A stretch of DNA of 52,392 bases, filler included, from Jimgerdemannia flammicorona (lineage: Eukaryota), in assembly GCA_003990765.1 (NCBI GenBank). It is 2 parts of 2 records of this genome, joined end to end, with 100 filler letters (N's around TTAATTAATTAA, not from the genome) between each part and the next. Parts side by side here need not be neighbours in the genome. Positions count along the whole stretch, not along the records: positions 1 to 26,150 come from RBNJ01000756.1; 1 more part is not named here. One strand, given 5' to 3'. The position numbers were made by a program, and so were the translations under genes. Positions 1,000 through 41,025 of this stretch are shown here, in pieces (the first letter of the stretch is position 1; each line of letters starts with the position of its first letter). The notes below the pieces were generated by a model. It was not told the DNA's origin, ran no database searches, and was given only the letters and a program-made list of their open reading frames with translations.

Positions 1000-3639
1000 T
1001 CCTTCTTCTCTTAAAAATCAATATTCTCATTAATTTGCAAATTGAGAACCAGGGAAGAGAAAGGTGAAAAATCTTTCTTAGTGTGGTTGTCTTCTCCTCT
1101 AGCAGCTGAAGAGGTGGTTGCTAATAGTTTGATATCTAGGATGAAGAAGTCAATGAGGTCTGTAAATGGTTCTTGAACTGGTATAGACATTGGAATAGGA
1201 GTTCTCCATCTAATGTTATTGAGACCATCCAAGTAGAATTCTTGGTCCTTATATCTAGAGATATCCATTCAGATAGGTAGTTCTTCAAAGAGGTCAGAGA
1301 GACCTTAGAGCCATTGGTCTGGATTGTCATTCAGGAGGAGGCTCTAGTAGGATTCAATGTCAGTGGACTTGAGGGTAATTCAGAAGTTGACTTCTTAGAC
1401 TACCTTGATCTCTAGCTTATCAATTTTGAGGAAGAAGAGGTTCTGGAAGTTCTTCAGTTATATGTAGTTAAGGTTGGAGATTGCAAAAGATATATGATAT
1501 ATAATTTAGTAGACCTTCCTGACTAGTCTTTACTTGTACCTGTCTAGGTTGGTCTAGCCTAAGACCTGGTTAGTGGGTAGGCCATTTGTATATTAAAGAA
1601 GTTGATGACCAATTTCATATTTATACCAGATTTCTAAATAGCTGGTAGTAAGGTAGACCCTTTGATGAGTTTATAGCAATCAAGGACATACTGTCCTAGG
1701 TCCTGGCTGGAGAGGTTAAGGGCCTCAGAGCAGTGGTTTCTTCCTTAGATAGTAACCTGAATATGTCCAAAAAGGTAGTCAACCTAGCTTGAGAGAAGCT
1801 GGCTATGGCAAATAGTTTGGTAGTAAGTAGTAGATATTCTTGTCTTATCTTTTCTTTTAGAGAGAGGAGGGAGATGAGAGTTGTAATATATTCTTACTCT
1901 GGGTATTTATACTATTCATTTGTCTGGTATGACTTCAATTCAATCATGTTTTCTAGCAGAATATATAACCTATTGCTATAAGTAGAGCATGTGCTGATCA
2001 TATGAGGAAAATCCTAATTTCAAGCTATCACTACTTATGGTTGTAGTTATACAGAGTTTACAGATCTTAGTTTTTTTTTTTGTCTGGTTGGTATATTTGC
2101 AAGGACTGGCCATTCTTGTCTAGGATGAGGTCTCTCATTATTGTAGCTAGGGGTTTGAATTTCTTGGAAATAGTATTTCTTATATTCTGAGACAATTTAT
2201 AGTAAAAATATCTATCATATAGATGAACTTAGATTGGTTTCAATATTGTTAGCTTTCCTAAGTTCCATATGAAGTATCTGTCATCATCTAGTAGAGATGA
2301 CACAGATGGCATGAAATGGAATTGTTCAAATATATTTTGCTACACCTTGCTGGATTGTTCTTTGCCAGAGTATCTTCTTGTTGATTAATATAGTATTTCT
2401 ATTTCTATAATATTCAGTATTGCATATTCCAGATAAATTTATAGTATCTTCTTTCTTTGCTATGTGCTCTTGGTTTTAGAGCTGCAGTTTCTTCCTCTGC
2501 TAGAGAGTGAGTATTTCCATGTAGTTCTGGAGAGTATCATATGCATTCTCTAGAGCTTCTTCTTTTTTCCAGGTAGCATCATGGGTGGGGTAACTCTTCC
2601 ACTTGATGAGGAAAAACTGCTTGACTATTTTGATATATTTGTAGATCTTGTGGTTAAGTATTTCCTTAATTTCAAATTCCTTATGATTATTAATCCTAAT
2701 TGGAGATGGTGGTGGAATTATACACTCAGGAAATGGATTCTCATGGTAGTCCACCAGTTGGCTGATATGGAATACCAGGTGTACTTGAATATTGTAAGGA
2801 AGTTGTAACTTGTAGTTAACTTCACTGACTTTTTCCTTAATCTTGTATGGTCTAATTCTTCTAGTATAGAGTTTCTTGGCTGGTTGTTATGCTAGAGTGT
2901 CTGGATGGAGATAGTCTGTTCTAAACATGACTATGTTACTGATATTATAGGAGATCTCTCTTTGTTTCAAGTTCACATACTTGGTCTAGTAGTTCTGTGC
3001 TTTTATGAGAATATCTCTTATCATTTGTATAAGGTCAGAAATGGTCTCAGCCAGATCTTAGGCTGCTGGGACAGCTGATTTTGCAGTAGTACTCAGGGTC
3101 CTTGGGTGTTGGCCATAGTTTAGAAAGAATGGAGTCTTCTTCATAGAGGTTTACTGGCTATTATTGTAGAAAAACTCAGCATGGGTTAGGTACTTGTCCC
3201 AATTATTCTGCTTATAACAGCAGAAGATGCCATTGAGGGTCCTATTAGTTCACTCAGTCTGTCCATCAGTCTGAAGGTGATAGATAGTAGAGAACTTCAG
3301 CTTAGTTCTATAGAGAGAGAAGAATGCCTTCCAGAAGTTACTTATAAACTTTATATCTCAGTCAGATACAATAGTGCTAGATATGCTATATAGTTTGAAT
3401 ACTTAGTTGAGGAAGATCTCAGCAATCTCTGGTACTATGGCAGTGGTCTTGGTGGGTGCAAAATGAGCTTGTTTGCCTAGGTGGTCTACAAATACTATAA
3501 TGGCATCCCATTCTGCCTTGGTCTTGAAGAGCTAGACAATGAAGTCTATTGCAATCTGATCCTAGTTGTGACTTAGAATAGGTAGGGGTTGTAGAAGTCC
3601 TGTAGGTAGCTTGTTACCACTTTTAAACCTTTGGCATAT
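1000..3639 (-). mobile_element. Gypsy chromovirus A, 3' internal part (integrase core/C-terminus, GPY motif, chromodomain, extra ORF3), pseudogenised
   Basis: ORF 2500-2754 (EFEIKEILNHK...FLIKWKSYPTHDATW) is a chromodomain. The region is colinear with the reverse complement of 19040-21696. ORF 1011-1268 matches the ORF3 C-terminus of element B. Confidence 0.9.
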
Positions 3640-4084
3640 TGTAATAGAACGAGGCATGACAAGCGATCATGTGACCCAGCAGTGATGATGTCATCATACG
3701 ATTGAGCACAACATATGAATAACGAATGATGAATGAACAAACAATGTGGAAAATGATGCAAAAAACGATATTTAGCTTATCTCTGATAATCAGTACCACA
3801 GCAATAGTTGCCATAGCAGCTGATCATTGCCTAGTAATTGAGGTCCTGATTACAAAGTTGTTTTTGCCAAAAACCACCTAATAAAGGTCACAGTCACAAA
3901 CCTCACTATAGTTACCAAATTAGTCATTTATATTTAGTCAGAAATTGCAGACCAACTTGTATAAATACCCCCCAGTTTCCATCTGAAATAAAGCAGTTTT
4001 AGTTCAGTCCTTGATACAAGAAATCAAGTCCCCCCCACACACATACATTCCCCTGAGTCTTAGTAATGACACCTAAGTGACTCT
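3366..4084 (+). repeat. Left copy of a ~720-bp direct duplication (element A integrase piece + first 445 bp of element B 5' LTR)
   Basis: Matches 13103-13806 (offset 9737 up to the LTR start 3640/13377, then a ~15-bp indel). It ends ACCTAAGTGACTCT immediately before the poly-T. Confidence 0.92.
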
Positions 4085-4829
4085 TTTTTTTTTTTTTTTT
4101 ATAAAACGAGTAGAAAATAGAGAAATAGTTTAGAGCAAGATGAGATGCTGTTACAGTGGATATGAAGATCAGTGGTAAAAGGTCAAGCAGTAGGAAACGA
4201 TAAGCTTTTGTAAATTTTCACAACAGAACAAAGAAGTGGAATAAAGTGTTTTCTGAAGCAAGGTGCAATAGATCTGCAATCCGCTCATAGCACCACAGTT
4301 TGCAATGGTCTTTATTCAAAATTGAGAACAAAGTTCAGGTAAACAAAGACATGGATCTAACCCCAGAATTCCAGAATTGGACAAGTGCATAAGTACCCAG
4401 ACCTTGCCCCGATCCAAACAAAGGTCTGAATTGGGCTTCATCGATCTACATACATGACAGGCCATTAAAAACCCAATATAGAAACAATCAGGAAAAGGTA
4501 CCAGTCATGTGATCTAATGTTACACAAACAATAAACAATGCTAAAAATGGAACTAGACCAATGACATATCACGTTTGGTCATGTGATTATTACTTATAGG
4601 TTTAAAACTCTAAAAATTGTTGGCACCCGAAGGTGCAGGCATCAGGCCTAGAGCCTCGTGACCGGAGCAGAGTAGAGCCATGGTACTGGAGCAAGCGAAG
4701 CGAGCAGAGGTAGACAGGTGTCACAGAGTGTAAGTATGCAGGCATCAGGCCTAGAGCCTCATGCTGGAGGTTGTCCAGCAATTTTTCACATTTTTAAACA
4801 TCGCACGGCACATATGAGCAGTGCAGCCT

Positions 4830-6836
4830 TCAAGGAGGACTTACAGTGAAGCTGGTGTTTGAGACGGCGTTAAGAATGCTAAAACCATTCTTCTGGGTGA
4901 TGATTGGTCATCGGGCAGTCACAGGGAAACCAAAATGAAGCAAAGTGGTATGTAGGGTCTTATTGGGCTGTTGATGTAGCCATCGGGCCATGTCGTATTG
5001 GATGACAAGTAATGGGGGAGGAAAAGCGGAGTGGGGGATGGGGGGGTGGGAAATAAGGAGAGGGGTGAGAAGTGAAGTTCAGACCTCAAGCCAATCAATC
5101 AAACTCAATTGAGTGGTTACAACATCAACAGGGTATCCTTTCCTGTAAACCAGGAACTCAGCCAATAACTGACAGTCATTAAGCCAATCACAGCGAGATG
5201 AGCAGAGTAGTGAAAGGTGGCAGGCCTCATTCACAATGCATAGATGAAGTGTCTTCCTAGGATGATTGTCCAACCAGTTGACAAACTGAGTACTACATGG
5301 GAATTTAGCGAAGCGGCCTATGCAGAATGGTGTGACTTGGATTTCCAGGTCTAAGTAATAGCACGGTCTGGCGGACAAGACTTCCCATTCAATACGATGA
5401 TGCGGAGGGTACACAGCAGCAAAGATCAAGGCCAAGTCCATAATCGCGGGTATAAAGACAATAAGATCATCAATATACTGGCAGAACTTTAGCCCAGCAG
5501 CGATGGCTCAGCTGAGCAGATGATTGGGTGCTTGCAAGGTATGTAATTCATGAGCAAAACCAATAAGATTGACAAGATCCGGAGCACAATTGGTGCCCAT
5601 AGCAATACCAGTCACTGAGCAGAAGGAACTGATGGTAGATGTAAATGTTATATGAGTTATGACTATGCAGACAAGACCGAGAATGGCTTCAAGTGGCAAA
5701 GAGCCAAGGGGGAAGGCCACTATCGATAAAAAGGTAAGGCAGTCAATGCACTCATCTAGTATGATCCTGGTGTAGAAGGTGGTGAAATCTCCAGTAGCAA
5801 TGTAGTTGCAATCTGACACATCTAGGTAATCCAATCGAACCAGCTGTAGTAGTTCTAACATATCACGTAGAGATGAATAACATGAGTAACCCACATTATG
5901 GCACAAATGGGCCGACCACAGATGGAGAAAGCGAGATAGGAAATGTGAAATCTCAGTTGTGTGAGAGTTAAAAGCACCAACGATAGGGTGCCATGCCACA
6001 TGTGCCCCTTTGTGTACCTTGGACAAAGTGTGAAACATGGGTAACTTGCAATCGTTGGGTTCCATGAGGTGTTCCCAAATCAGCATACAACTCTTGTCAC
6101 TGATGCAGAACTCAAGTAGACCAAGAAGGTCTAACCTCACTGATTCCTTAACATTATCAATTGTAGAGGGATCATTCATGTATGTAGGATCATAAAGGAG
6201 AGACCGAAGACCATCGAGATACAAGGCACGTGGAATTACAGCGAACTCCAGATTTTTGTTGGTAAGATAGACAGTAAAGTCATCATGAGTATGGACCCCT
6301 TTAAGAAGGCATTGGAACTTCTTCAGTACAAGTGCACTGGACATATTCGTCATGGGTCAGACAGCTTGATTCAAAGCAGCACTCATATGAAGCATAATTT
6401 GCATATTTTCCATACAGTGCGGCAGTTGCCATTTAGATGGCACCCAGGCAGAGATCTCCAGGATGTTGTCAGGATTACCCATAGAGGTCCAGAAGGTGGC
6501 AAGGTCAAGATGCCATTAGAATGATGACAATGAAATCGGGTCAATGGTACTATTCATTGATGCTGACCCAGAGAGAACAAACTTAGGGCCAAAGTTCAGT
6601 ATATATGTGAGCTCAGGGGTAAGCCAAGACAGAGGTATATCAGTAACAAAGCCCTCCTCGGTAAACATCCGAAACTGAGGGACGAAAAACTGACTCAAGC
6701 GAGAACCAGGAAGAGAAGACACAAAGGCAAAATCCTCAATTAGTGTTGAGGCCGCTACCCCACATAGAATGGGGACATCGGGGCCAAACCATGCTGCTGG
6801 GAAGTTGTATAAGACTTCCGGGCTGGGGACCTCTAG
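4830..6836 (-). pseudogene. PLE reverse transcriptase ORF2, copy 1 (in-frame stops, no GIY-YIG domain)
   Basis: Motifs LNFGPKF, T(D/N)KNL, PMFHTLSKVHK, HPIV, GDFTTFYTRI, GIAMGTNCAPDLVNL, QYIDDL, YLDL, and thumb NHP...LCSS...KGYP. The reading continues past the TGA at 5079 for about 80 aa (LLVIQY...PIITQKNGFSILN) and then meets the H module. Confidence 0.9.
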
Positions 6837-7993
6837 TTTTTTGATGCTAGAGGACAGACATCACCAGCATTATACCAAACAACATGATGCTTGGCAGCAG
6901 TACACTTGTTGCACTGTGGCACAAATACCCTGGCAGCACTCTTAGATGAGCAGCTTGAAGTTGACGAGTGGCTGGTCACAGTAGAAGCAGAAGAAATGGA
7001 TGGGGAAGGCAAGACCTTATGCGCTCGCTTGACCCCTTTTACAGAACCCTCTGTCAAGGCAGGGGCTAGGGGGCAAGGACCCCAGTGCACCTTTGTAGGC
7101 ACACCGAGGCATCCAGAACAGCTGCAGCAGTTTAGCATGGCAGAGGCTGAAGTCACACTCACCACCTTGGCCTTTCCTACAGCCCCCACAGGCATAGCAG
7201 TAGAGGGTGGGGGGGTGGGGACACTCTTTTTCAGTCAGGTGGAACTGGTGGCAGTAGAAGCAAATATGCATTTTGTACCTGGAGTAATGATCTCGGGGTA
7301 CTTCTCAAGCTCCTCAACCATGGCTTTGTAGGTGGTGGCAGAAATCCCATCTTGTAGAGAGGAGGACGCAGGAACTGTTGGGTGGATGGTGGCAGCAGTG
7401 GCTTTAGCAGCGGTGGTGACGGCAAGATGGCGAGATTGACACATGATAACATCAAAACCACAGAGCAGAAACAAGTTTGTCTTGACTTGGTCAGTGGCAG
7501 CAAGGGTAGCAATATTCTTGCTAACCCCTTGAGTGATATCAATGGATAACTCAAAGAAATTGTGGGCATCGGAAGACCCACTCATGGCTTTGTCGATTTT
7601 AGCATACTGGTCCTTAGTATGCTGGGCGGTGGCATCTTGATCAGAGATGGCAGCCTCGATCATGGCAGTGGCACAGCACTTAGCTTCTGCCGAAGTAGTA
7701 GTAAGGGTGGTGGCATACTGTTCCTCTGGGAGGAGGGCAATCGCAGCAGAGACCTTCTTGGAAGGAGTAAACTTCCAATCAGCAACTTGGGCTCTCAAAA
7801 AGTCAGCACAGCGCTCATGTGCAGTGGTAACCTCGAGAGTACGGAGCACTCTAGTATAAGCAGCATGGAAGGCAGCAGGGACCTCGACAAGCGAAGCAGT
7901 CAAGAAGATGGCCAGATCGTCGAAGTTTGCCAAATCAGTGAAGGAAGCTTTGGGGATAGCAGCATCGCCATCTACATTCATATTGTCTGTCAT
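6833..7993 (-). pseudogene. PLE ORF1, copy 1 (~386 aa; Ala-rich, probably helical N-terminus, basic Ser/Pro-rich C-terminus)
   Basis: ORFs 7235-7993 and 6833-7195 share one frame separated by a TGA that is CGA in copy 2. Homologous to 9211-10371. Confidence 0.85.
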
Positions 7994-8502
7994 GTTGTGT
8001 ATTATAAAATGAGTAGAAAATAGAGGAATAGTTTAGAGTGAGATGAGATGCTGTTATGGTGGATATGAAGATTGGCAGTAAAAGGTCAAGCAGTAGGAAA
8101 TGATAAGCTTTTGTGAATTTTCATGATGGAACAAAGAAGCAGAATAAAGTGTTTTCCAAAGCAAGGTGCAATAGATCTGCAACCTGCTCATAGCACTGCA
8201 GTTTGTGATGGTCTTTATTCAAAATTGAGAACAAAGTTTGGGTAAACAAAGACACAGATCTAACCCTGGAATTCCAGAATCGGACAGGTGCATAAGTACT
8301 CAGACCTTGCCCCAATCCAAACAAAGGTCTGAATCGGGCTTTGTCGATCTATACATGTGACAGGCCATTAAAAACCTGATATAGAAACAATTGGGAAAAG
8401 GTACCGGTCACATGATCTAATGTTATACAAACAATAAACAATGCTAAAAATGGAACTAGATCAATGACATATCACATGTGGTCACATGATTGTCACTTAT
8501 AG

Positions 8503-8702
8503 GTTTAAAAACCTAAAAATTATTGGTACCCGAAGGCGCAGGCATCAGGCCTAGAGCCTCGTGACCAGAGCGGAGTAGAGCCTCGGCACCAGAGTAAGCA
8601 AAGCAAGCAGAGGTAGACAGGTGTCACAGAGCATAGGTATGCAGGCATCAGGCCTAGAGCCTCATGCTGGAGGTTGTCTGGTGATTTTTCATGTTTTTAA
8701 AC
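8503..8702. repeat. H module: loop of the giant palindrome, bounded by inverted repeats GTTTAAAAAC (8503-8512) and GTTTTTAAAC (8693-8702)
   Basis: Also present at 4600-4799 and, inverted, at 12403-12602. It contains the direct repeat GCAGGCATCAGGCCTAGAGCCTC twice and mini-hairpin motifs CCCGAAGG and GCGAAGC. Confidence 0.9.
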
Positions 8703-9210
8703 CTATAAGTGACAATCACGTGACCACACATGATATGTCATTGGTCTAGTTCCGTTTTTAGCATTGTTTATTGTTTGTGTAACATTAGATCACATGACTG
8801 GTACCTTTTCCCAATTGTTTCTATATTGGGTTTTTAATGGCCCATCACATGTATAGATCAACAGAGCCTGATTCAGACCTTTGTTTAGATTGGGGCAAGG
8901 TCCGGGTACTTATGCACCTGTCCGATTCTGGAATTCCGGAGTTAGATCTGTGTCTTTGTTTACCCAAAATTTGTTCTCAATTTTGAATAAAGACCATTAC
9001 AAACTGCAGTGCCATGAGCAGGTTGCAGATCTATTGCACCTTGCTTCAGAAAACACTTTATTCCGCTTCTTGTTCCATCGTGAAAATTCATAAAAGCTTA
9101 TCATTTCCTACTGCTTGACCTTTTACCGCTGATCTTCATATCCACCGTAACAGTATCTTATCTCACTCTAAACTATTCCTCTATTTTCTACTCATTTTAT
9201 AATACACAAT

Positions 9211-10371
9211 ATGACAGACAATATGAATATAGATGGCAATGCTGCTGTCCCCAAAGCTTCCTTCACTGATTTGGCGAACTTCGATGACCTGGCCATCTTC
9301 TTGACCACTTCACTTGTCGAGGTCCCTGCTGCCTTCTATGCTGCTTGCACCGGGGTGCTCCATACTCTCAAGGTTGCCGCTGTGCATGAGTGCCGTGCTG
9401 ACTTTTTGAGAGCCCAAGTTGCTGATTGGAAGTTTACTCCTTCCAAGAAGGTCTCTGCTGTGATCGCCCTCCTCTCAGAGGAACAGCGTGCTGCCACCCT
9501 TACTACTGCTTCTGCAGAAGCTAAGTACCGTACCACTGCCACAATTGAGGCTGCTGTCTCCGATCAAGATGCTGCCACCTAACATGCTAAGGACCAGCAT
9601 GCTAAAATTGATAAAGCCATGGGTGGGTCTTCTGATGTCTACAATTTCTTTGGGTTATCCATTGATATCACTCAAGGGGTTAGCAAGAATATTGCTACCC
9701 TCACTGCCACTGACCGAGCCAAGACAAACTTATTTCTGCTCTGTGGTTTTGACATTGTCGTACATCAATCTTGCTATCTTGCCACTGCCACTGCTGCTAA
9801 AGCCGCTGCCACCACTGTCCACCCGACAGTCCCTGCATCCTCCTCCTTGCAAGATGGGATTTCCGCCGCCACCCACAAAGCCATGGTTGAGGAGCTTAAG
9901 AAGCACCCCAAGATTGTTACTCTGGATGCAAAATGCATGTTTGCTTCTGCTGCCGCCAGTTCTGCCCGACCAAAAAAGAGTGTCTCCACCCCCCCACCCT
10001 CTACCACCGTGCTTGTGGGGGCTGCGGGAAAGGCCAAGGTGGTGAGTGTGACTTTGGCCTCTGCTGCACCAAACTGCTACAGCTGTTCTGAACATCTCGG
10101 TGTGCCTATGAAGGCACACCAGGGTCCTTGTCCCCTAGCCCCTGCCTCAACAGAGGGTTCTGTAAAAGGGGTCAAGTGAGTGCATAAGGCCTCACCTTCC
10201 CCATCCATTTCTTCCACTTCTATCATGACCAGCTGCTTGTCGACTTCCAGCTGCTCATCTAAGAGCGCTGCCAGGGCATTTGTGCTGCAGTGCAACAAGT
10301 GTACTGCCACCAAGCATCATGTTGTTTGGCATAATGCTGGTGATGTCTGTTCTCTAGCATCAAAAAACTAG
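9211..10371 (+). pseudogene. PLE ORF1, copy 2
   Basis: ORFs 9211-9582, 9619-10179 and 10180-10371 lie in one frame, split by TAA/TGA codons explicable as C-to-T changes. It begins MTDNMNIDGNAAVPKASFTDL and ends ASKN*. Confidence 0.85.
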
Positions 10372-12372
10372 AGATCCCCAGCCTGGAAGTCTTATATGAC
10401 TTCCCAGCAGCATGGTTTGGCCCCAATGTCCCCATTCCACATAGAGTAGTGGCCTCAACACCAATTGAGGATTTTGCCTTCGTGTCTTCTCTTCCTGGTT
10501 CTCACTTAAGTCAGTTTTTCATCCCTCGGTTTCAGATGTTTACTAAGGAGGGCTTTGTTACTGATATACCTCTACCTTGGCTTACCCCCAAGCTCACGTA
10601 TATGCTGAACTTTGGCCCTAAGTTTGTTCTCTCCAGGTCGGCATCAATGAACAGTACCATTGATCCAATTTCATTATCGTCGTTCCAATGGCGTCTCAAC
10701 CTTGCCACCTTCTGGACCTCTATGGGTAATCCCGACAACATCCCAGAGATCTCTGCCTGGGTGCCATCTAAATGGCGACCACTGCACTATATGGAAAATA
10801 TGCAAATTATACTCCATATGAGTACCACTTTGAATCAAGCTGTCTGACCCATGACAAATGTGTCCGGCATGCTTGTACCGAAGAAGTTCTGATGCCTTCT
10901 TAAAGGGGTCCATACTCATGATGACTTTACTGTCTGTCTTACTGACAAAAATCTGAGGTTCGCCATAATTCTGCATACCTTGTATCTTGACAGTCTTCAG
11001 TTCCTCCTTCATGATCCTGCATATGTGAATAATCTCTCTATGATTGATAACGTTAAGGAATCAGTGAGGTTAGACCTTCTTGGTCTACTTGAGTTCTGCA
11101 TCGGCGACAAGAGTTATATACTGATTTGGGAACACCTCATAGAATCCAATGATTATAAGTTACCTGTATTTCACACTTTGCCCAAGGTATACAAAGGGGT
11201 ACATATGGCATAGCGCCCTATCGTTTGTGCTTTTAACTCTCCCATGACCAAGATTTCACATTTCCTATCTCACTTTCTCCACCTGTGGTCAGCCTATTTG
11301 CACCATAATGTGGGTTACTTGTATTATTCACCTCTACGTGATACATTAGAACTGCTATAGCTAGTTTGATTGGATCACCTAGACATGTCAGATTGCAACT
11401 ACGTCACTACTGGAGATTTTGCCATCTTCTACACCAGAATCACACTAGATGAGTGCATCAACTGCCTTACCTTTTTATCAATAGTGGCCTTTCCCCTTGG
11501 CTCTTTGCCACTAGAAGCTGTTCTCGGCCTTGTCTGCATAGTCATGACACATATGACATTTATATCTGCCATCAGTTCCTTCCGCTCAGTGACTGGTATT
11601 GCTATGGGCACCAATTGTGCTCTGGATCTTGCCAATCTTGTTGGTTTTGCTCATAAATTGCATGCCTTGCAAGCACCCAATCATCTGCTCAGCCGAGCCA
11701 TTGCTGCCAGGCTAAAGTTCTACCAGTATATTGATGATCTTATTGTCTTTACACCCATGATTATGGACTTGACCTCAATCTTTGCTGCTGTATACCCTCC
11801 GCATCATCATATCAAATGGGAAGTCTTGTCTGCCAGACCATGCCATTACTTAGACCTGGAAATCCGAGTTGCACTGTTCCACACAGACCGCTTTGCCAAA
11901 TTCCCACAAAGTACTCAGTTTGTCGACTGGTTGAGCAATCATCCTAGGAAGATGCTTCATCTATGTATTGTAAATGAGGCCCACTGCCTTTCACTACTCT
12001 GCTCATCTTGCCGTGATTGGCTTAATGAGTGTTGGTCATTGGCCAAGTTCCTGGTTCACAGGAAAGGATACCCTATTGATGTTGTAACTACTCAATTGAG
12101 TTTGGTTGATTGGCTTGAGGTCTGAACTTTACTTCTCACCTCCCCTTATTTCCCACCCCCCCATCCTCCACTCCACTTTTCCTCCCCCATTACTTGTTGT
12201 CTAATACAACATGGCCCAATGGCTACATCAATAGCCCGACAAGACCCTACATACTGCTTTGCTTCGTTTTGGTTTCCCTGCAACTGCCCAATGACCAATC
12301 ATCACCTGGAAGAATGGTTTTACCATTCTTAATACCATCTCAAACACCAGCTTCACTCTAAGTCCTCCTTGA
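10368..12372 (+). pseudogene. PLE reverse transcriptase ORF2, copy 2
   Basis: LNFGPKF, TDKNL, LPKVYK, GDFAIFYTRI, GIAMGTNCALDLANL, FYQYIDDL, YLDL, SNHP, KGYP. It lies in the -1 frame relative to ORF1. Confidence 0.9.
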
Positions 12373-13102
12373 AGACCACACTGCTCATACGTGCCGTGCA
12401 ATGTTTAAAAATGTGAAAAATCGCTGGACAACCTCTGGCATGAGACTCTAGGCCTGACGCCTGTGTATCTATGCTCCATGATGTCTGTCTATCTCCACTC
12501 GCTTCGCTCGCTCCAGTGCCAAGGCTCTACTCTGCTCTGGTCACAAGGCTCTAGACCTGATACCTGCACCTTTGGGTGCTGACAATTTTTAGGGTTTTAA
12601 ACCTAAAAGTGACAATCACGTGACCACACATGATATGTCATTGGTCTAGTTCCATTTTTAGCATTGTTTATTGTTTGTATAATATTAGATCACGTGACTG
12701 GTATCTTTTCCCAATTGTTTCTATATTGGATTTTTAATGGCCCATCATGTATGTAGATCGATGAAGCCTAATTCAGACCTTTGTTTGGATCGGGGCAAGG
12801 TCCAGGTACTTATGCACCTGTCCGATTCTGGAATTCTGGGGTTAGATCCATGTCTTTGTTTACTCAAACTTTGTTCTCAATTTTGAATAAAGACCATCAC
12901 AAACTGCAGTGCCATGAGCAGGTTGCAGATCTATTGCACCTTGCTTTGGAAAACACTTTATTCCACTTCTTTGTTCCATCGTGAAAATTTACAAAAGCTT
13001 ATCATTTCCTACTGCTTGACCTTTTACTGCCAATCTTCATATCTGCCATAACAGCATCTCATCTTGCTCTAAACTATTCCTCTATTTTCTACTTGTTTTA
13101 TA

Positions 13103-13806
13103 ATATAATAGTGCTAGACATGCTATATAGTTTGAATACTTAGTTGAGGAAGATCTCAGCAATCTCTGGTGCTGTGGCAGTGGTCTTGATGGGTGCAAAA
13201 TGAGCTTGTTTGCCTAGGTGGTCTACAAATACTACAATGGCATTCCATTCTGCCTTGGTCTTGAAGAGCTAGACAATGAAGTCTATTGCAATCTGATCCT
13301 AGTTGTGACTTAGAATAGGTAGGGGTTGCAGAAGTCCTGTAGGTAGCTTGTTACTACTTTTAAACCTTTGGTATATTGTAATAGAACAAGGCGCAACAAG
13401 CGATCACATGACCCAGCAGTGATGACATCATCATATGATCAAGCATGACATATGAATAATGAATGATGTGGAAAATGACACGAAAAATGATATTTAGCTT
13501 ATCCCTAACAATCAGCACCACAGCAACAGTTGCCATAGCAGCTGATCATTGCCTAGTAATTGAGGTCCTGATCACAAAGTTGTTTTTGCCAAAAACCACC
13601 TGACAAAGGTCATGGTCACAAACCTCACTATAGTTACCAAATTAGTCACTCATATTTAGTCAGAAATTGCAGACCAACTTGTATAAATACCCCCCAGTTT
13701 TCATCCAAAATAAAGCAGTTTTAGTTCAGTCCTTGATATAAGAAATCAAGTCCCCCCCACACACATACATTCCCCTGAGTCTTAGTAATGACACCTAAGT
13801 GACTCT
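13103..13806 (+). repeat. Right copy of the ~720-bp direct duplication
   Basis: Matches 3366-4084 and continues seamlessly into the rest of the element B LTR. Confidence 0.92.
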
Positions 13807-14135
13807 AGTGTTTCTGACTAAACTCCAGAAGCCTAGCTAACTTCTGCCAGAACTGAGACCAGTATATAAATCCTGAAAGACTTAAGTAAACCCATTGAAC
13901 CTGAATTCTAAGGCAAATTCAGTCTGTGCACAGCAAAGAACAAGACCCTTGAAAGATAGGGCACACAAGAGAAAGATCTTTGAAACAGAAGGCACTACCA
14001 CTATAACTACTTATAAGCGAGCGCTTCCTTAACTGAAGGCTTCTTGGTATACATCATGTACTAAGTCTCTAAGTAATAGTCTACTTCCCTAATTATCCAA
14101 TGGATAAGAGAGGGGTAGAAGTGAGAGTTATTACA
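13377..14135 (+). repeat. 5' LTR of element B
   Basis: Runs TGTAATAG...GTTATTACA with terminal inverted repeat TGTAATA/TATTACA. TATA-like TATATAAA near 13863. Confidence 0.93.
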
Positions 14136-14138
14136 ACT

Positions 14139-14150
14139 TGGTAGCAGCAG
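14139..14150 (+). promoter_or_regulatory. Primer-binding site, probably for initiator tRNA-Met
   Basis: TGGTAGCAGCAG lies 3 nt (ACT) after the LTR end. TGGTAGC is complementary to the 3' end of tRNA-iMet, as in Ty1/Ty3. Confidence 0.7.
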
Positions 14151-14221
14151 ATTACCAGCCAAGAAGATACTAAAGAACACACTCCTGAAGTTGGAACAAT
14201 ACCAACCTTGGACAGGAGTAA

Positions 14222-16665
14222 ACCCCAGAACCAACTGTGGATCCTCAAACCAGAGCCAGAGAAGCCCTTGCCATTAGGACCAGGTGATACCAGGAAACAA
14301 CAGACCCAAGGACCCACCAGCTTGTAATTGACCAGGCTTATAAGGATCTATACCAGGCCTTTAGGACTTACCACCCAGGACTTAGGAATATTGTCAGCCA
14401 CCATAGGTTCTATGAACTCCTCCGAGGACACATTGGAACCACTAGGACCCCAGAATCCACTGCTGCAGCCACCCAGGATTTTTTAGATTATATCTCACCC
14501 CCTGCTGCAAGAGAAGCAGCTGCTGAGTGGATTACCTCTGACAGATATCACTATACCCCTACCAAGACCTCCCTCTACTATAGGCTAGTTGTATACTATG
14601 CCTCTGCCATAACCAGGTACGAGAATGAGCAAGCAGGCCAACTATCCCCTACTGCTGAACAAGAAGCAGGCCCATCTACTTAGCCAGAAACTGATATCCT
14701 CTTTGAAGGACCTAGTCAGTATGAGGACACACTATCTCATCAGAGAAGGGAGTCAGATGAAGACTCTATAGGATACCAGTCTGATGATAGTCAACAAAGA
14801 ACAGCAGGTCTAAGAATTTACCAAAGAACTACAGGTTAAGAAGATCAGACCCCAGAACTAACCCAGCCACCAATACAGAGGTTTGGTTTACCCTCCCTCA
14901 TAGGACTCTTTGATCTGATATCTGAGAATCAAGTAACCTCAAGTCATACAGCACTATAACCCCATCAAGCAGAACAATCTTCAGGAGAATCTACCCCAAC
15001 AGGCCCACCACCAAAAGTCAACACAATGGTAGATGTCAACATTGCAGCACTGACTACCCAGCTAGCAGCACTAGCAGAGATAGTAGGACAGATTGCTGAA
15101 CAGAACAAACCAACCAAGACCTTATGAATTCCAACATTCAGTGGAAAGAACAGTGACATTGAAAACCTCATCAATGTAGTTGATACAGGCTACTGAGCAA
15201 ACCAATGGAATGACAACTAAGTGTCTATAGGAATGCTCACCAACAACCAGAATAGCACCCTTCAACAGCTGTTTGCCATATCAGCAGCACAAGTGGAAAC
15301 AGTAGCCACATTCTTCACTGGAACAGCAGCCAAATTTTGGCAAACCTTGGAACAACACCCAGTAACCTGGGAAGACCACCCTCAAGTCAATGGACAAGTA
15401 TCTGCCAACAATAGACTAGGTTGGGATGACTATGAAGCAGGCCCAGGACTCAAGACCTTGCTACTGACTAAATTCCAAAATGCAGCCTATATACAAGAAA
15501 CTTGGAACAAACTGTCTCAGATGAAGTTCTACAAGAGCAGTGAGGAGGATCTAGAGACCTTTGCCACCAGAATAGATGCCTATCTCAAAACCATTGGACT
15601 TACCTATCAGGAGAACAACTTGGCCATCAATGATACTAGAGCCAACCATCTTTTTGCAGCCCTACAAGACTGGCTCACCCAGAAGATCAAGGAACAAGGT
15701 CTTCCCCAAGGATGTCCCCACTACTCATGGTACTTTGCCCAAGTACAAAGAAGAGCTGGTGAAATCCTTGCTGTACAGGCCCCACGAAATCAAGAATACA
15801 AAAAGGATAACCAAGATAGAAGGAATCCTACCAGGAGAAATGACCAAAGGAAGGACCAAAGATATGATCAAAGGAATGATCAAAGGAACCAGTGAAACCC
15901 CAGAGGACCCAGAGCTCTCACCAAGGATGAAAAGAAGCAGCTCTGCAAAAAGGGATTGTGCTTCATCTGCAAGAAGACAGGACACATCTCAGTCAAATGC
16001 CCTGAGAAGAGAAACAGATCAGGCAAACCCAGTAACCAGAACATTACTGTTATTGGAGAAGGCACAGAGAAGAAGAACTCTGAGAATATCATCAAAGTAT
16101 AGAAGATATAGTACAAGGCTACCATCCCCACTAAGGCCCACTCAACTGATGCTGGATATGACCTCTACAGCAGTCAAGATCTCACCATTCCACCAAGTAC
16201 CAATGCTACAGTGTGAACAGGAATTGCAATGCAAGCTCCCAAAGAAACATACATCTGCCTTGCTGAGTAAAGCAGCCTAGCCAAAGAATTCAACATTGGG
16301 CTAGGAGGAGGAGTAGTTGACCAAGGATTTACTGGTGAAATCCATGTCATCTTGCGAAATTTTGGAGATACATTATTTGAAGTCAAAGTAGGCCAAAGAA
16401 TTGCCCAGACAATTATTGAAGAAATCTGTCAAGATCTCACCATTGAAGAAGTCCCTGAACTCTCCCAGATAGATCATGGCAAGAAAGGGTTTGGATCTAC
16501 CAACAAACCTCCTAGTCAAAAGGTCACTACTATGAAGGAAGATGATGAAAACTGGTATAAGAGAATTGCAGATGGTTATGTACTATGTGGACAATGCCCT
16601 CATTCTATCTGAATGTACTACATGGAATATATTGGTAAATGCCATACATGCCTCTCCAAAGTTTT
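14222..16665 (+). pseudogene. gag: Element B ORF1: long N-terminal extension, Gag (IPTFSG, CCHC knuckle), dUTPase, CPH mini-domain
   Basis: One frame throughout, with scattered C-to-T type stops. Knuckle LCFICKKTGHISVKC at about 15956-16000. dUTPase motifs DAGYDL, SSLA, GVVDQGFTGEI, RIAQ, GKKGFGST at about 16090-16502. Confidence 0.85.
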
Positions 16666-16669
16666 CTGA

Positions 16670-19600
16670 GAAATGCCAAGTCCAACAGACTGAGGAACCC
16701 AAACAAGACAACCCTCCTTGTGAAGGATGGAGAGAAACTGACTTTGAGGAGACTGATAGCAATTGGGACAATAATGAGAATGAAGAGCTCAACACCATCA
16801 AGAAGGAGGACAGTTGCATTAAGTTTACAGGTCAAGTCCACAGACAGAATATCAATGTCTTGCTTGATAGTGATACTACTGAAAACTATATCAGCACCAA
16901 GACTGCCAAGAGGATTGGAGCCCAAAGCAGACCAGCCACCAAGAAAAGAAGTGTTATCTTTAGTGATGGAAAAACTGCACCATTGAACAAGATCTGCAAG
17001 GATCTCTTGCTCAAGATTGGCAAATATCAAGAGAAGTTGGACCTCAGCATTGTAGACCTCCCAGGACAAGATATTATTCTAGGAAAAGCCTGGTTGACCC
17101 AGTATAACCCAGACATCAACTGGAGAACCAACGAGATTAACCTGACCCATGAAGGCAGAAAGATCACCCTGATACCCCAGAAAGGTACCAATTACCAAGG
17201 AATTGAAATCATCTCCACCATTCAAATGAAGAGACTCTCTCGAAAAAAGAGAAACACCTATTTCATCTGTACAGTACAAGAAGTCACTGAAGCTACAAGT
17301 AGCCCAATTCCAACAGAAGCTCAAGAACTGTTTAAAGAATTCCAAGATGTATTCCAAGACCCCTAAGGACTTCCACTCAAGTATCAAATCCAATATGGGA
17401 TTGATCTTATTCCAGGATCTGAACCCCCATATAAGAGTATCTATCAACTGGCCCAACCTGAGCTCAAGACCCTCAAGGATGAGTTGACCAAACTACTGGC
17501 CCAAGGATATATTGAACCCAGCTGCTCTCCATTTGGAGCCCCTATTCTATTTGTCAAGAAGAAGGATGGTTCTCTGCAAATGTGTATTGACTACAGAGCC
17601 CTCAACAAGATCATCATCAAGAACCGATATGTCTTGCCCAGGATTGATGAGTTACTACACCAAATCTTCAAGGCCAAGACCTTTTCTCTACTGGACTTGC
17701 AAAATGGCTACCACCAGATTCTCATTGATGAGAAGAACATTGAGAAGACAGCTTTCCAAATACAGTTTGGACACTACCAGTTCCAGGTCATGCCTTTTGG
17801 ATTGACCAATGCACCAGCAACATTCCAGTACCTGATGAACGACATCTTTAGACCACTTCTCAATATCTGTGTCCTTGTATATATTGATGATATACTAATC
17901 TACAGCAAAACAGTAGAGCTACACTACTACACCCATCTCAGACAAGTACTGACCCTCCTGTGAGAACACCAGCTCTATGCCAAGATGAGCAAATGCAAGT
18001 TCTATCAAGACCAGATTGAGTATCTAGGACACATTATCTCTGCTGAAGGTATCAATGTAGACCCCCGAAAGGTATCAGCCCTTAAGGATATTCCTATTCC
18101 CACTACCCTCAAGCTACTCCAGCACTTTCTGGGTATTGCCAGTTACTACTGAAGGTTTATCCAAGAATACTCTGCTATTGCAGCTCTATTGACCAGCCTG
18201 GCCCGCAAAGAAGTGAACATCAAAACTGAATGGACCCCTGAATACACCCTAGCTATAGACTATCTCAAGAGACTCCTTACTGAGGCCCCAGTGCTAATTG
18301 CACCTGACCCCACCAGGCTATTCATGCTGACCACAGATGCCTCTGACATTGCTATTGGAGCAGTGCTCAGCCAAGAAGACCACCTAGTGGCCTACCTTTC
18401 CCAAAAGCTCAAGCCAGCTGAGACCTGGTACACTACCCATGAGAAGAAACTCCTGGCCATTGTTATTGCATTTCAAGAATAGCACCACTTCCTCCTAGGA
18501 CAACCATTTGTAGCCTACACTGATCACTATGCCCTGCAGTATATTCATACATAGCCCATGCTAACCCACAGACAAGCCCGCTGGATGGAAATCATTGCCA
18601 ACTTTGATATGGAAATCAAGTATATCTCAGGCAAAACCAACTGTGTGGCTGATGGTTTCTCCAGATACATAGAAGATGAACTTGTCTTCATGGTCAAAAT
18701 AATTGGAGATCTGACCGAGATGATCAAGGATGGCTACAGCAGGACAGCCCCCTGACGAAATTTCTCCAATTCTGCCAAGACCCAGAAGCCGAGATCCCAG
18801 AACTCATGAGTCAAATGTCCAAGAGATTCACTTACCGTGATGGACTTATCTACAGAGACTATGATAGAGTAGTTGTACCCAACAATGATACTCTGTGACT
18901 CAAGATCATGCAGGAACTCCATGATACCCCTACAGCAGGACACTTTGGTTTCAAAAAGATCTATAACCTCCTCTCAAGAGAGTTCTACTGGCCAAAGATG
19001 ACTAAGGACATCAAAGACTTTGTGGCTTCTTGTGAGATATGTCAAAGGTTCAAAAGTGGTAATAAGCTACCAGCAGGACTCTTACAACCCTTGCCTATCC
19101 TAAGTCACAACTGGGATCAGATTGCAATGGACTTTATTGTCCAACTCCCCAAGACCAAGGCAGGATGGGATGCTATTGTAGTATTCATGGACTGCCTAAG
19201 CAAACAAGCCCACTTTGCACCCACCAAGACCACCACTACAGTACCAGAGATTGCTGAGATTTTTCTCAATCAAGTATTCAGGCTACATGGCATGCTTAGT
19301 ACTATTATATCTGACTGAGATACCAAGTTTACAAGTAACTTCTGGAAGGCATTCTTCTCTCTCCATGGAACTAAGCTGAAGTTCTCTACTGCCTACCACC
19401 CTCAGACTGATGGCCAAACCAAGCAAACCAATAGGACTCTCAAACAGATGCTTAGCATCTTCTGCTGTTACAAGCAAAATGATTGAGACAAGTATCTAGC
19501 CTATGCCGAGTTTGCCTACAACAACAGTCAGCAAACCTCTACAAAGAAGACTCCATTCTTCCTGAACCATGGTCAACACCCAAGGACCCTGAGTACTACT

Positions 19601-20209
19601 GTGAAATCAGCAGTCCCAGTAGTCCAAGATCTGGCCAAGACCATTTCTGACCTTACCTGAATGACAAGAGACACTCTTATAGAAGCACAAGACTACCTGA
19701 CCAAGTATGCAAACTTGAAGCAAAGAGAAGCCTCCTACAATATTGGTGACATGGTTATGCTTAGAACAGACCACCTCCACCCAGATACCCTAGCACAACA
19801 ACCAGCCAAGAAACTCTGTGCTAGAAGAATTGGACCATATAAGATTGTGGAAAAAATCAGTGAAGTCAACTACAAGTTGCAACTTCCCCACAATATCTGA
19901 GTATACCCAGTATTCCATATCAGCCAACTAGTGGACTACTATGAGAACCTATTCCCTGAGAATACAGTCCCACCACCACCCCCAATTAGGATCAATGATC
20001 ATGAGGAATTTGAAATTGAGGAAGTACTTGACCACAAGGTCCACAAACATCCCAAAACAGTCAAGTGGTTTTTCCTGATCAAGTGAAAGGGTTACCCCAC
20101 CCATGACACCACCTGGGAAAAAGAAGAAGCTCTGAAGAATACACATGAAGCCCTCCAGGACTACATGGAAACACTCACACTCCAGCAAAGGAAGGAACTA
20201 CAGCTCTAA
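16670..20209 (+). pseudogene. pol: Element B pol: aspartic protease, RT, RNase H, integrase, chromodomain
   Basis: VLLDSD (DSG mutated), SPFGAPILFVKKKDGSLQMCIDYRALN, VMPFGLTNAPATFQ, VYIDD, TDASDIAIGAVL, HHCC (HDTPTAGH...CEIC), MDFI, IGPY, EFEIEEVLDH. Confidence 0.93.
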
Positions 20210-20857
20210 AGAATTGAAGCACATAGTGAGCAGAAGGATACTACATATCTTATCTCAAATATATTATACCAAACATTGCAGCAAAAAGGAACACTATGGA
20301 TAACTAACAAGAGGATGCTCTAGCAAAAGGACAATCTAGTACAGTACAGCAAAATGCATTTGAACAACTCTATTTCATGCCATCTGTATCATCTCCACTG
20401 GATGATGACAGATACTTCATATGGAACTTAGGAAAGCTGACAATGTCAAAACTAGTCTAAGTCTATCCACGTGACAGATATTGTTACTAGGAATTGCCTC
20501 AGATTATAAAAAAAGTCTATTTCCAAGAGGTTTGAACCCCCAGCCACAATAATGGGAGCCCTTGCCCTAGAAAAGGATGGCCAGTCCTCACAAATGTGCC
20601 AACTAGACAAAAAAAAAGAGGACTAAGACCTGTTAACCCTGTGTAACCACAACTACAAGTGATGATACCTTTGGAAATCAGAATTTTCTCATGTAACCAA
20701 CACATGCCCCACTTATAGCAACAGGTCACACATTTTGCAGAAAAGCATAACTGAAAGAAGATCACACTAGATAGGTGAACAAGTATAAATACCCAAGGCA
20801 AGAATATCCCACAACTCTTATCCCTCTTGCCTTACAAAGAAAAAGAACAAGACAAGA

Positions 20858-21685
20858 ATGCCTGCTACCCACTACCAAACTGCCCACTATAGCCAGCCCC
20901 TCCCAAGCCAGGTTGACCACCTCTTTGGATACATCCAGGTTGCTATCCAAGGAAGGAACCACCACTCAGAGGCCCTTAACCTCTCTAGCCCGGACCCAGG
21001 ACAATATGTTCTTGACTGCTATGAACTCATCGAAAGAGCCTACCTTGCTACCAGCCACCTAGAGATCTGGCATTAATATGAGATTGGCCATCAACTCCTC
21101 TAATGGGCAAAGGACCTGTCCACTGACTAAGTCTCTGACTGGACCCACCTGGACAGACATGAGCAAAGACTTGCTAAGAAGGTCTATCAAATCATGTACC
21201 ATGCACCCTTTGCAATCCCCAACCTCAACTATGTCCAACTGAAGGATTTCCAGAACCTCTCTTTTCCTGAGGTTGACAAACTAGAGATCAAGGTAGCCCA
21301 AGAAGCCAACTTCTGGATTTCTCTCAAGTCTACTGACTGCAAACCCTACTAGAGCCCCCTCCTGAATGATAACCCAGATCAATGGCTCTAAGGCCTTTCC
21401 GACCTCTTTGAAGGACCCTCTATCCGAATGGATATCCTCAGGCATGAGGATCAAGAACCCTACTTGGATGGTCTCAACTGCATCAGATAGAGAACCCCTA
21501 CACCAGTACCTATTTCAATGCAAGAACCATTTACAGACCTCATTGACTTCTCCACCCTGGAAAGCGAGCCATCAGCAACCACCCCCCCTGCCACTGAAGA
21601 AGATGGCAACAACCCTGAGGAAGATTCTCCACCTTTCTCTCTCTTGGTTCTCAATTTCCGAATCAACGAGAATGTTGATTTCTAA
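20858..21685 (+). pseudogene. Element B extra ORF3 (~275 aa, unknown function) between pol and the 3' LTR
   Basis: The ATG at 20858 and TAA at 21683-21685 are in one frame with a few in-frame stops. The C-terminus (QEPFTDLIDF...LVLNFRINENVDF) is shared with element A ORF 1011-1268. Confidence 0.7.
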
Positions 21686-21696
21686 GGAGAGAAGGA

Positions 21697-22426
21697 TGTA
21701 ATAGAATGAGGCATGATAAGTGATCATATGACCCAGCAGTGATGATGTCATTATATGATCAAGCATGACATATGAATAACGAATGATGAATGAATGAATG
21801 ATGCAGAAATCGACATAAAAAATGATATTTAGCTTATCTCTGACAATCGGCGCCACAGCAACAGTTGCCACAGCAGCTGATCATTGCTTAGTAATTGAGG
21901 TTGTGATCACAAACCTCACTATAGTTACCAAATTAGTCACTCATACTTAGTCAGAAATCACAGACCAACTTGTATAAATATCCCCCAGTTTCCATCTGAA
22001 ATAAAGCAGTTTTAGTTCAGTCCTTGATATAAGAAATCAAGTCCCCCCCACATACACACATTCCCCTGAGTCTTAGTAATGACACCTAAGTAACTCTAGT
22101 GTTTCTGACTAAACTCCAGAAGTCTAGCTAACTTCTGCTAGAACTGAGACCGGTATATAAATCCCCAAAGACTTAAGTAAACCCATTGAACCTGAATTCT
22201 AAGGTGAATTCAGTCTGTATACAGCAAAGAACAAGACCCTTAAAAGATAGAGCATACAAGAGAAAGACCTTTGAAACAGAAGGCACTGCTGCTACAACTA
22301 CTTATAAGTGAGCACTTCCTCAACTGAAGGCTTCTTGGTACACATCATATACTAAGTCCCTAAGTAATAGTCCACTTCCCTAATTATCCAAAGGATAAGA
22401 GAGAGATATAAGTGAGAGTTATTACA
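21697..22426 (+). repeat. 3' LTR of element B
   Basis: Preceded by the PPT AAGGAGAGAAGGA (21684-21696). Direct repeat of 13377-14135 with an internal deletion between TCACAAA repeats. Confidence 0.93.
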
Positions 22427-23333: not shown

Positions 23334-23989
23334 CTAAACAAAGAGAGTTTGTAGGGGGCTGTCTGATTAGAGACAGGACAGCTTGAGGATATGGTATCAT
23401 TAAGAAAGCTTGTACTGCTAAGGTGGATGAATGACTGGTTTTCTTAGATTAAGAGAAGACCTATGATAGAGTCTAATAAGTGTGGTTAAAAGGAGTACTA
23501 AGGTACATTGAGATCTCTCCTGGGATCTAGCAGGTCTTGGTCAGCCTGCTAGATGGGAGTCAGGCAGTAATTATAGTAATTGGGTACAGAGGGGTTTCAT
23601 TCCCTCTGGGCAGAGGAGTGCTACAGGGGGATTCACTGTCACGGATTCTATATATACTATCCCTAGAGTCTCTTTTGGATAGGATATGGCAAAAGGTGGG
23701 AGGGTTGGATATTCTGGGAGTTAATTGGAAGGTAGGGGCCTTTACTGATGATATAGTAGTTGGGCTAGAGTTAGTTGAGGATGTTACAGTACTGAAAGAT
23801 ACAGTAGAGTAGTATGAGAGGTTCTTAGGTGCCAAGCTCAACTGGCATAAGTATGAGACTTTAGTATTAGAAGGAGGGATAATAGGTGGGGATATCATTA
23901 GAATAATTATCTCTGTAGGAAAGTCTGTGCACTATCTGGGAATCTACTTCTTGATGAATAGTTCTTTGCTACTATACAGATAGTGGGAG
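23334..23989 (+). mobile_element. Decayed L1/Tx1-like LINE RT fragment (possibly the continuation of 12-223)
   Basis: FVGGCLIRD, LVFLD*EKTYDRV, RGVLQGDSLS, GAFTDD, HYLGI. Confidence 0.85.
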
Positions 23990-26150: not shown

Positions 26151-26250
26151 NNNNNNNNNNNNNNNNNNNNNNNNNNNNNNNNNNNNNNNNNNNNTTAATT
26201 AATTAANNNNNNNNNNNNNNNNNNNNNNNNNNNNNNNNNNNNNNNNNNNN
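26151..26250. other. Artificial contig linker / gap
   Basis: N44 + TTAATTAATTAA (stops in all six frames) + N44. The two sides need not be adjacent in the genome. Confidence 0.95.
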
Positions 26251-28658: not shown

Positions 28659-29156
28659 CTATTCAAAGTCGAGCTGAAAGCGAATCAAACGCATTTTTGC
28701 ATCCTTCGTAGGGGGGGGATACATTTTGAGGTCCACACTGAGGCGGCCCCTGTTTACCTCTGTCGCCAGCTCCCACTTGAATTTTTCGAATTCCTTCTGG
28801 ACCTGAGTAGAACGCTCTTCGAGGAAATCCCAAAATAATCCCCAGTCGAGGCGACGGCAGGCGCTGCGCTCCGTGGATTTGAGCCTTGTCAATATCTCCG
28901 TTCGATTCGTACTGTCGGCGGGAACCTCTGCGGTGGCCGCCAATAGCTTTTTCGGGTTTGAGCTCCGGAATCGCAACTCCAATACGCAACGACGCAAGCG
29001 GTTGTGGCTCCCCGTTAGGAGGTGGTCGTGGATCATCTGAATGAATGGCACGATGAACACACCGTATAGCTGCGTCGTGGAAGTGAGGCGGGATACCGCA
29101 TTTTCGGGAGATGCGCGACGTTGTGGTACACGATGCCGAGATGTTATGCTGCCCAT
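28659..29156 (-). CDS. Hypothetical protein, 165 aa, paralog of 32068-32604
   Basis: Intact ATG-to-stop ORF. Shared blocks YGVFIVxFIQMIHD, LRFxxSxP, LKSxERxxCxRLDW, VNRGRLxVD, RLxxFQxxF. Confidence 0.8.
   Translation of the reverse strand: MGSITSRHRVPQRRASPENAVSRLTSTTQLYGVFIVPFIQMIHDHLLTGSHNRLRRCVLELRFRSSNPKKLLAATAEVPADSTNRTEILTRLKSTERSACRRLDWGLFWDFLEERSTQVQKEFEKFKWELATEVNRGRLSVDLKMYPPPTKDAKMRLIRFQLDFE

Positions 29157-31201: not shown

Positions 31202-31204
<3 letters not shown>
29810..31204 (+). repeat. Dispersed repeat, copy a
   Basis: Shared blocks AAAAGGTATTTAG, GACAATC(A/G)TGGAAGAC, ACATGAGAAAACCGACAC, CACTCGTTCATG, ATAATTTGG with copies b and c. Boundaries approximate. Confidence 0.8.

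Positions 31205-31268
<64 letters not shown>

Positions 31269-40994: not shown

Positions 40995-41025
<31 letters not shown>

Follow-up and report, generated by a model that had tools for sequence, protein, structure and literature searches.

The window analysed here, a 52,392-nt stretch of DNA from the genome of Jimgerdemannia flammicorona (assembly GCA_003990765.1), carries a 9,018-bp insert (4085-13102) made of two decayed Penelope-like elements (PLEs), each with two open reading frames (ORFs), which lie head to head with their 3' ends outward and are directly adjoined at both ends by copies of a 719-bp direct repeat. We consider it very probable that the repeat was made by the insertion itself, whether by reverse transcription from two ends, by fold-back of one cDNA or with the help of a nuclease acting in trans. 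Among these routes we favour, with some reserve, the one in which the repeat is a target duplication from the event that inserted the pair, both ends of the target having been reverse-transcribed.

The repeat abuts both ends of the insert

Self-BLAST of the window and a global alignment bear out a repeat reported by the first-pass annotation of this DNA, in which 3366-4084 (719 bp) recurs as 704 bp at 13103-13806 (91.8% identity and one gap by BLAST). In the global alignment 704 bases align with 44 mismatches, comprising 44 transitions and no transversions, and with one 15-bp indel; the segment absent from copy 2 is present in copy 1 and in the 3' long terminal repeat (LTR) of a host retrotransposon, B. 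The repeat consists of 274 bp of a second host element, A (Ty3/Gypsy-type, reverse strand, integrase region), followed by 445 bp from the start of B's 5' LTR. B was inserted in the integrase region of the reversed A with a 5-bp duplication (A resumes at 22428), and the A part of the repeat is homologous to a stretch of B downstream of B's integrase zinc-finger match. Because the A/B nesting junction sits in both copies, the repeat cannot reflect two separate LTR insertions, a point the annotation had made correctly; the CATAT that it placed at this junction is found in copy 1 (CATAT/TGT), whereas copy 2 reads TATAT/TGT, and TATAT also follows B's 3' LTR. Homology between the copies breaks off sharply, exactly at the insert, on both sides, and neither junction shows a short duplication or a loss of target bases. 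This arrangement, a direct repeat abutting both ends of the insert, is one that a true target-site duplication would show.

Self-comparison of the window pairs 4099-8519 with 13103-8686 as the two inverted arms of the insert. Each arm holds ORF1 and a reverse transcriptase (RT) ORF between direct pseudo-LTRs of ~700 bp, and the inverted arm is adjacent, an order that is characteristic of PLEs. LTR-element DNA flanks the pair for at least 4 kb on one side and at least 9 kb on the other, so that its position is interstitial and not telomeric. We found no telomeric array, only isolated hexamers with none at the junctions (the host telomere repeat was not identified), and no second PLE in the window. 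A hammerhead was likewise not found: 3300-14200 gave no Rfam match at E ≤ 1, and a strict core motif was absent from all four pseudo-LTRs, in which C-to-T decay is heavy. ORF1 has no Pfam or Atlas match, and the RT profile has no match in the PDB.

No endonuclease is detectable in either element

Pfam identifies no GIY-YIG endonuclease (EN) domain in ORF1 or ORF2, and ORF2 gives a weak match to RVT_1 alone. A custom profile built from 25 GIY-YIG domains of relatives had no match when the window was read in all six frames (the best E, 0.18, falling outside the element), although a very divergent nuclease could escape this search, as the profile derives from C-terminal domains and the copies are decayed. 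A full HMMER scan recovered 663 RT relatives at E ≤ 0.001, where a word-indexed protein search had given one. GIY-YIG is carried by 24 of the 150 best RT relatives, by 2 of the best 50 and by none of the best 12. The RT motifs, together with a DKN-like motif (named as in PMC13159263), align with those of relatives, and ORF2 extends beyond the thumb for another ~80-90 residues, alongside its nearest relative, before it ends. We considered a TGA at RT codon 594 in both arms as the end of the ORF and rejected it, since the nearest relative continues past this codon and the tail can be aligned.

An RT tree (FastTree) of 65 RT domains, made up of the two arms and 63 of the 136 hits left after filtering by length, clusters the two arms with three EN-less proteins (support 0.99), outside the EN-bearing group; it includes no named Coprina references. 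The nearest named RT match, a Racocetra fulgida protein at 32% identity, failed the length filter of the tree. A metagenome scan was uninformative, yielding three loci from 99 pattern matches that are 22-25% identical and lie on contigs of 2.6-3.1 kb without internal repeats. From these sequence comparisons the insert appears to be an endonuclease-less PLE. We do not file it as Coprina, because it is non-telomeric, neither a telomeric array nor a hammerhead was detected, and the tree includes no named Coprina references. The first-pass annotation had proposed insertion without an element nuclease, which agrees with the lack of a detectable GIY-YIG domain. Its argument from duplication length, that a duplication above ~30 bp implies no nuclease, fails, as the endonuclease-bearing elements Dualen-4b and L1 make duplications of ~0.9-1.5 kb.

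Junction sequences suggest priming from two ends

At the left junction the top strand of the target reads ...GACTCT and is followed by 15 more T and then by the reverse complement of the element end. The resulting poly(T) is 15-16 nt long, with one T common to the target, and is the usual mark of poly(A) priming. At the right junction the element stops at the same base as the left arm, without poly(A). The five bases past this end (ATACA, now ATATA) agree with the target and also with what comes after the pseudo-LTR in the element's own tandem. Among host positions, 0.40-0.46% carry such a 5-mer and 27-32% a single A, giving ~1.5% once the first A is granted. The microhomology noted here in the first-pass annotation is thus present, at 5 nt and not 4; an RNA polyadenylated 4-5 nt further on could explain the match equally well. 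At the centre, the left arm crosses a 200-bp module with an inverted repeat at its two borders; the start of the right arm lies within the outer of these repeats, and 180 nt of spacer remain. Whereas the two 3' pseudo-LTRs have a stem of 8 bp, a single C-to-A change (8511) in the left arm's inner repeat extends it to a perfect 10 bp at the junction; this change may be a correction templated by a hairpin or a variant that the source element already carried.

In terms of the target, these junctions correspond to two 3' ends, one at 4084 on the top strand and one at 3366 on the bottom strand, with an overlap of 719 nt. The mechanism we favour would start from two such 3'-OH ends on opposite strands, each bearing the intervening 719 nt. 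As the element has no detectable endonuclease, it would have used ends not of its own making, which might come from two one-ended breaks on sister chromatids, from a single break with ends extended by repair, or from two nicks lying far apart. The top-strand end would be primed on the poly(A) tail by one base pair, and the bottom end at the same point of a second transcript through the 5-nt microhomology. Each cDNA, ~4.5 kb long, would cover the whole unit and run into the upstream pseudo-LTR; the 8-10-bp inverted repeat of the element would then serve to join the two cDNAs, and fill-in would fix two copies of the target. A single event, the use of two RNAs and the origin of the ends are the parts that we infer. 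We favour two-ended priming because the right junction matches read-through of the element over 5 nt and not a copy of the left arm's poly(A). The annotation had instead proposed extension of one end followed by a template switch ~720 bp back, which is possible but fits the right junction less well than a second RNA-primed end.

The repeat and the arms have decayed to a similar extent

In raw terms the copies of the duplicate differ by 6.2%, the arms by 11.7% and the LTRs of B by 8.8%, nearly all of it context-dependent C-to-T change. The difference in raw values reflects composition, since the A part had no CpG when it was duplicated. Taking C/G as ancestral at each transition, a procedure that hides sites hit in both copies, discordance in the duplicate is 0.73 at CpG, 0.15 at CpA, 0.06 at CpC and 0.01 at CpT, and in the arms 0.69, 0.17, 0.10 and 0.01, respectively. 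The duplicate carries 44 transitions against 46.5±5.3 expected from the arms' trinucleotide rates, and per-context Fisher tests give p=0.50-1.0. The derived base lies in copy 1 at 24 sites and in copy 2 at 20 sites, interleaved. Stretches of identity reach at most 84 bp in the duplicate and 66 bp between the arms. The comparison of duplicate and arm divergence that the annotation had suggested thus gives agreement once values are normalised by context, on a coarse clock that does not prove a single event. A clock based on transversions was discarded for having too few events. Throughout 1-23333 the decay of repeats is almost purely C-to-T, with CpG >> CpA > CpC >> CpT (0.7, 0.17, 0.1, 0.01); this spectrum is of methylation type and not strictly CpA.

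Weighing the alternatives

Several observations weigh against two-ended priming in a single event. The LTR pair of B, which is older than the duplication or as old, shows 55 transitions where 45.8±5.2 are expected (z=1.8), and CpG-context sites are ~70% discordant in every pair. Since the clock barely separates the LTR pair of B, the decay data place the duplication and the arms in the same epoch and do not extend to the same event. The duplicate has no transversion in 704 positions, the arms have 15 in 4,418 (Poisson P=0.09, Fisher p=0.25) and the LTRs of B have 5 in 715, with no pairwise difference significant. Two different templates are not indicated by the four pseudo-LTRs, whose two-by-two splits number 16, 9 and 6 (p=0.08); an apparent excess of the split between 3' and 5' pseudo-LTRs (17/6/9, p=0.048) was not used, as it falls to these values when the junction overlap is left out.

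The C-to-A change that perfects the central stem is a further point of this kind, as it fits a hairpin intermediate and therefore a fold-back route. Here a single priming at 4084 on poly(A) would be followed by snap-back of the cDNA at the inverted repeat of the 5' pseudo-LTR, self-copying and, once the first A of the tail is reached, a switch to target sequence 719 nt upstream. The central junction does lie on a built-in inverted repeat with a 180-nt loop, the inner repeat of the left arm having become a perfect 10-bp match, self-priming is the reading of head-to-head PLE junctions published in PMC3846280, and the right arm is full length and ends exactly at the left arm's start. Fold-back nevertheless predicts a right-hand poly(A) or a 1-nt join, whereas four further bases match read-through (~1.5% by chance), and the 15 transversions and two small indels between the arms, set against the absence of transversions in the duplicate, lean slightly towards different templates (P=0.09). 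We regard fold-back as the main rival, possible though rather unlikely; it would still be a nuclease-free duplication coupled to insertion, close to the model of the first-pass annotation. Long duplications also arise with endonuclease-bearing long interspersed nuclear elements (LINEs), and a LINE RT lies 10 kb off in the same contig; target-primed insertion at distant nicks made in trans, by a LINE endonuclease of APE or RLE type or by an unseen EN-bearing PLE, is therefore possible. LINE duplications of this size are documented (Dualen, and L1 in cells deficient in nucleotide excision repair, NER), and the head-to-head layout is that of EN-bearing PLEs. We nonetheless judge this route improbable, given that no GIY-YIG domain occurs in the window, that duplications by EN-bearing PLEs are put at 8-10 bp in PMC3846280, and that the same source, in the sections concerned, describes Adineta EN-deficient PLEs that are not cross-mobilised and fungal genomes with EN-deficient PLEs only.

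A history in two steps, in which opposite insertions 719 bp apart on sisters or homologues recombined through their pseudo-LTRs, or in which the element replaced the junction of an older tandem duplication, seems to us a shade more improbable still. The clock cannot split events close in time, and unequal exchange would give an identical final map, but such a history would require that two rare events both fell within 0.7 kb and that their breakpoints coincided exactly with both element 3' ends, neither junction shows a short duplication or lost target bases, and the central join falls at an internal inverted repeat and not at an arbitrary point of long homology. The assembly is fragmented, the window being two contigs joined by a linker, and long palindromes are hard to assemble (PMC8557442), so we also considered a false duplication or a join of two haplotypes. 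The 44 differences are all transitions in methylation-type contexts with interleaved derived bases (24 in copy 1, 20 in copy 2), and the longest identical runs reach just 84 bp in the duplicate and 66 bp in the arms; because the copies have decayed independently, unlike a repeated read, we hold an artefact to be very improbable.

Features of the insert and of the surrounding DNA

Table 1. Coordinates of the insert, its flanking repeat and host element B in the window.
Feature	Position	Strand	Evidence
Target duplication copy 1, 719 bp: 274 bp of A, CATAT target site of B, 445 bp of B 5' LTR	3366-4084	+	Self-comparison, alignment
Poly(A) tail of left arm (poly(T) on + strand); one more T at 4084 common to target	4085-4099	-	
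Left arm 3' pseudo-LTR, ~700 bp; 200-bp module bounded by A/T-rich inverted repeat at ~4600-4800	4100-4799	-	
Left arm ORF2: PLE-type RT and thumb, short C-terminal tail as in EN-less relatives, no GIY-YIG, stop-broken	4830-6860	-	
Left arm ORF1: ~386 aa, Ala/Thr/Ser-rich, Cys/His clusters, no Pfam family, one internal stop	6833-7993	-	
Left arm 5' pseudo-LTR	8000-8702	-	
Head-to-head junction: perfect 10-bp inverted repeat (8503-8512 with 8693-8702), 180-nt spacer	8503-8702	.	
Right arm 5' pseudo-LTR, 5'-truncated	8693-9202	+	
Right arm ORF1	9211-10371	+	
Right arm ORF2, RT through thumb; tail beyond frameshifted by 2-bp indel relative to left arm	10344-12125	+	
Right arm 3' pseudo-LTR; end base is left arm's poly(A) site; no poly(A)	12403-13102	+	
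5-nt microhomology, element read-through and target	13103-13107	+	
Target duplication copy 2, 704 bp with 15-bp deletion; runs on into complete B 5' LTR (13377-14135)	13103-13806	+	
Host element B: Ty3/Gypsy-type LTR retrotransposon (protease, RT, integrase zinc finger), nested in reversed relative A	13377-22426	+	

Within the 200-bp module of the pseudo-LTRs (Table 1), a 27-bp direct repeat occurs twice (4634-4660 and 4737-4763, and again at 8538-8563 and 8640-8666); it has no Rfam match. Host elements A and B (223-23333) are 77-83% identical, and 44 bp of B's 5' LTR are missing from its 3' LTR. In a search with the RT of B, the named matches are plant and algal elements at ~50-60% identity, other matches reaching 69%. 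After the A remnant comes a decayed LINE (23334-26150; RVT_1 E 1.6e-21 at 24066-24878), whose region includes an internal repeat, 23607-23989 and 24505-24887, at 70% identity. The linker between the two contigs occupies 26151-26250 and consists of two N runs around TTAATTAATTAA. The observed/expected ratio of CpG is 0.18 left of the linker, about 1.0 in 26251-44000 and 0.17 in 44000-52392. In the CpG-undepleted DNA, old duplicates (64-80%), some inverted and some direct, occupy 28722-34602 and 43023-43924, broken by a poly(T) of 73 nt (31205) and a poly(A) of 25 nt (34578). These duplicates showed no PLE RT. A tandem array of ~15 copies of a 177-bp unit (70% match) lies at 35814-38447, and an LTR-type element with zinc knuckle, dUTPase and RT domains at 47499-50078.

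Comparison with known elements

EN-deficient PLEs are described as residing mostly at chromosome ends with telomeric repeats at their borders (PMC3846280, PMC8557442), and priming at double-strand breaks has been proposed for them (PMC3846280); those of fungi and protists are presented, in the passages of PMC3846280 that treat them, as lacking a direct or inverted repeat organisation. The insert resembles EN-deficient PLEs such as Coprina and Athena in having an RT without GIY-YIG and in its apparent reliance on pre-existing 3' ends. Coprina-1_Alen, which sits at chromosome ends between telomeric repeats, has two ORFs and direct terminal repeats (PMC13159263), and the elements described here share this two-ORF layout flanked by direct terminal repeats. 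Unlike Coprina and Athena as these sources portray them, the present pair is interstitial and has no telomeric array, and it combines poly(A), a head-to-head dimer and a 719-bp duplication.

The architecture is shared by EN-bearing PLEs, whose copies as a rule lie head to head and overlap by ~15 bp at a palindrome (PMC3846280, PMC8557442). Pen2a_Av (PMC3846280) and Naiad/Chlamys (PMC8557442) likewise have a partial tandem forming a pseudo-LTR, an adjacent inverted copy, outward 3' ends and an optional tail at one end. Tandem and inverted PLE structures have been attributed to endonuclease cleavage (PMC8557442), the EN-bearing PLEs of A. vaga make 8-10-bp duplications (PMC3846280), and PAc, another EN-bearing PLE, shows internal starts of reverse transcription and extension of both strands in vitro (PMC11167929). 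Where these elements, by the accounts cited, have GIY-YIG, an 8-10-bp duplication and usually a short inverted copy, the pair here has no detectable endonuclease, a full-length inverted copy and a duplication ~70 times longer.

Duplications of comparable length are known from LINEs, with de novo duplications of median 900 bp for Dualen-4b_cRei (PMC9977147), 126 bp for R9 (cited in PMC9977147) and a median of 1,495 bp for L1 in NER-deficient cells (PMC5223499). L1 can also bridge sister chromatids into a tandem duplication (PMC7058536), and opposed RT products of L1, made on two DNA ends from two transcripts, can be joined (PMC11702581). The insert shares with these cases a retro-insert placed exactly between copies of hundreds of target bases, and a possible origin in distant nicks or pre-existing breaks. 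LINEs as treated in these reports are endonuclease-bearing and give mostly single-orientation inserts, whereas here a nuclease-less PLE bears a 3'-end signature on both sides. In PNAmp, two one-ended breaks on sister forks are annealed or joined by a splint, duplicating the segment between them (PMC11406185); unlike that system, which as described there uses an engineered Cas9 nickase and no reverse transcription, the bridge here would be two cDNAs. Long duplications for nuclease-less PLEs were not found in the literature searched, which for the most part excludes subscription journals. Each ingredient of the structure therefore has precedent, and their combination in a nuclease-less PLE was not found in that literature.

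Implications for Penelope-like elements

The locus bears on how endonuclease-less PLEs enter chromosome interiors and on how the head-to-head structures of PLEs arise. A nuclease-less pair with head-to-head architecture and a 719-bp duplication contradicts the expectations set out in the relevant parts of PMC8557442 and PMC3846280, although its weight is limited, as it is one decayed locus known from assembled sequence and long duplications by LINEs were already known. The locus offers a signature that can be counted, consisting of the length of the duplication, the 3'-end chemistry at both junctions and a fixed central join, and it points to a possible route to sub-kilobase segmental duplication. 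More tentatively, and with somewhat less confidence than we place in the two-ended reading of this locus, we suggest that a nuclease-less, telomerase-related lineage may have left the telomere and may spread in chromosome interiors by routinely capturing overlapping pairs of 3' ends from replication or repair, reverse-transcribing from both and joining the products at its built-in inverted repeat, long duplications being its normal signature. If long duplications do prove to be a signature of the family, the head-to-head architecture of PLEs would need no GIY-YIG endonuclease, and the lengths of the duplications would be an in vivo record of how far broken or converging forks overlap.

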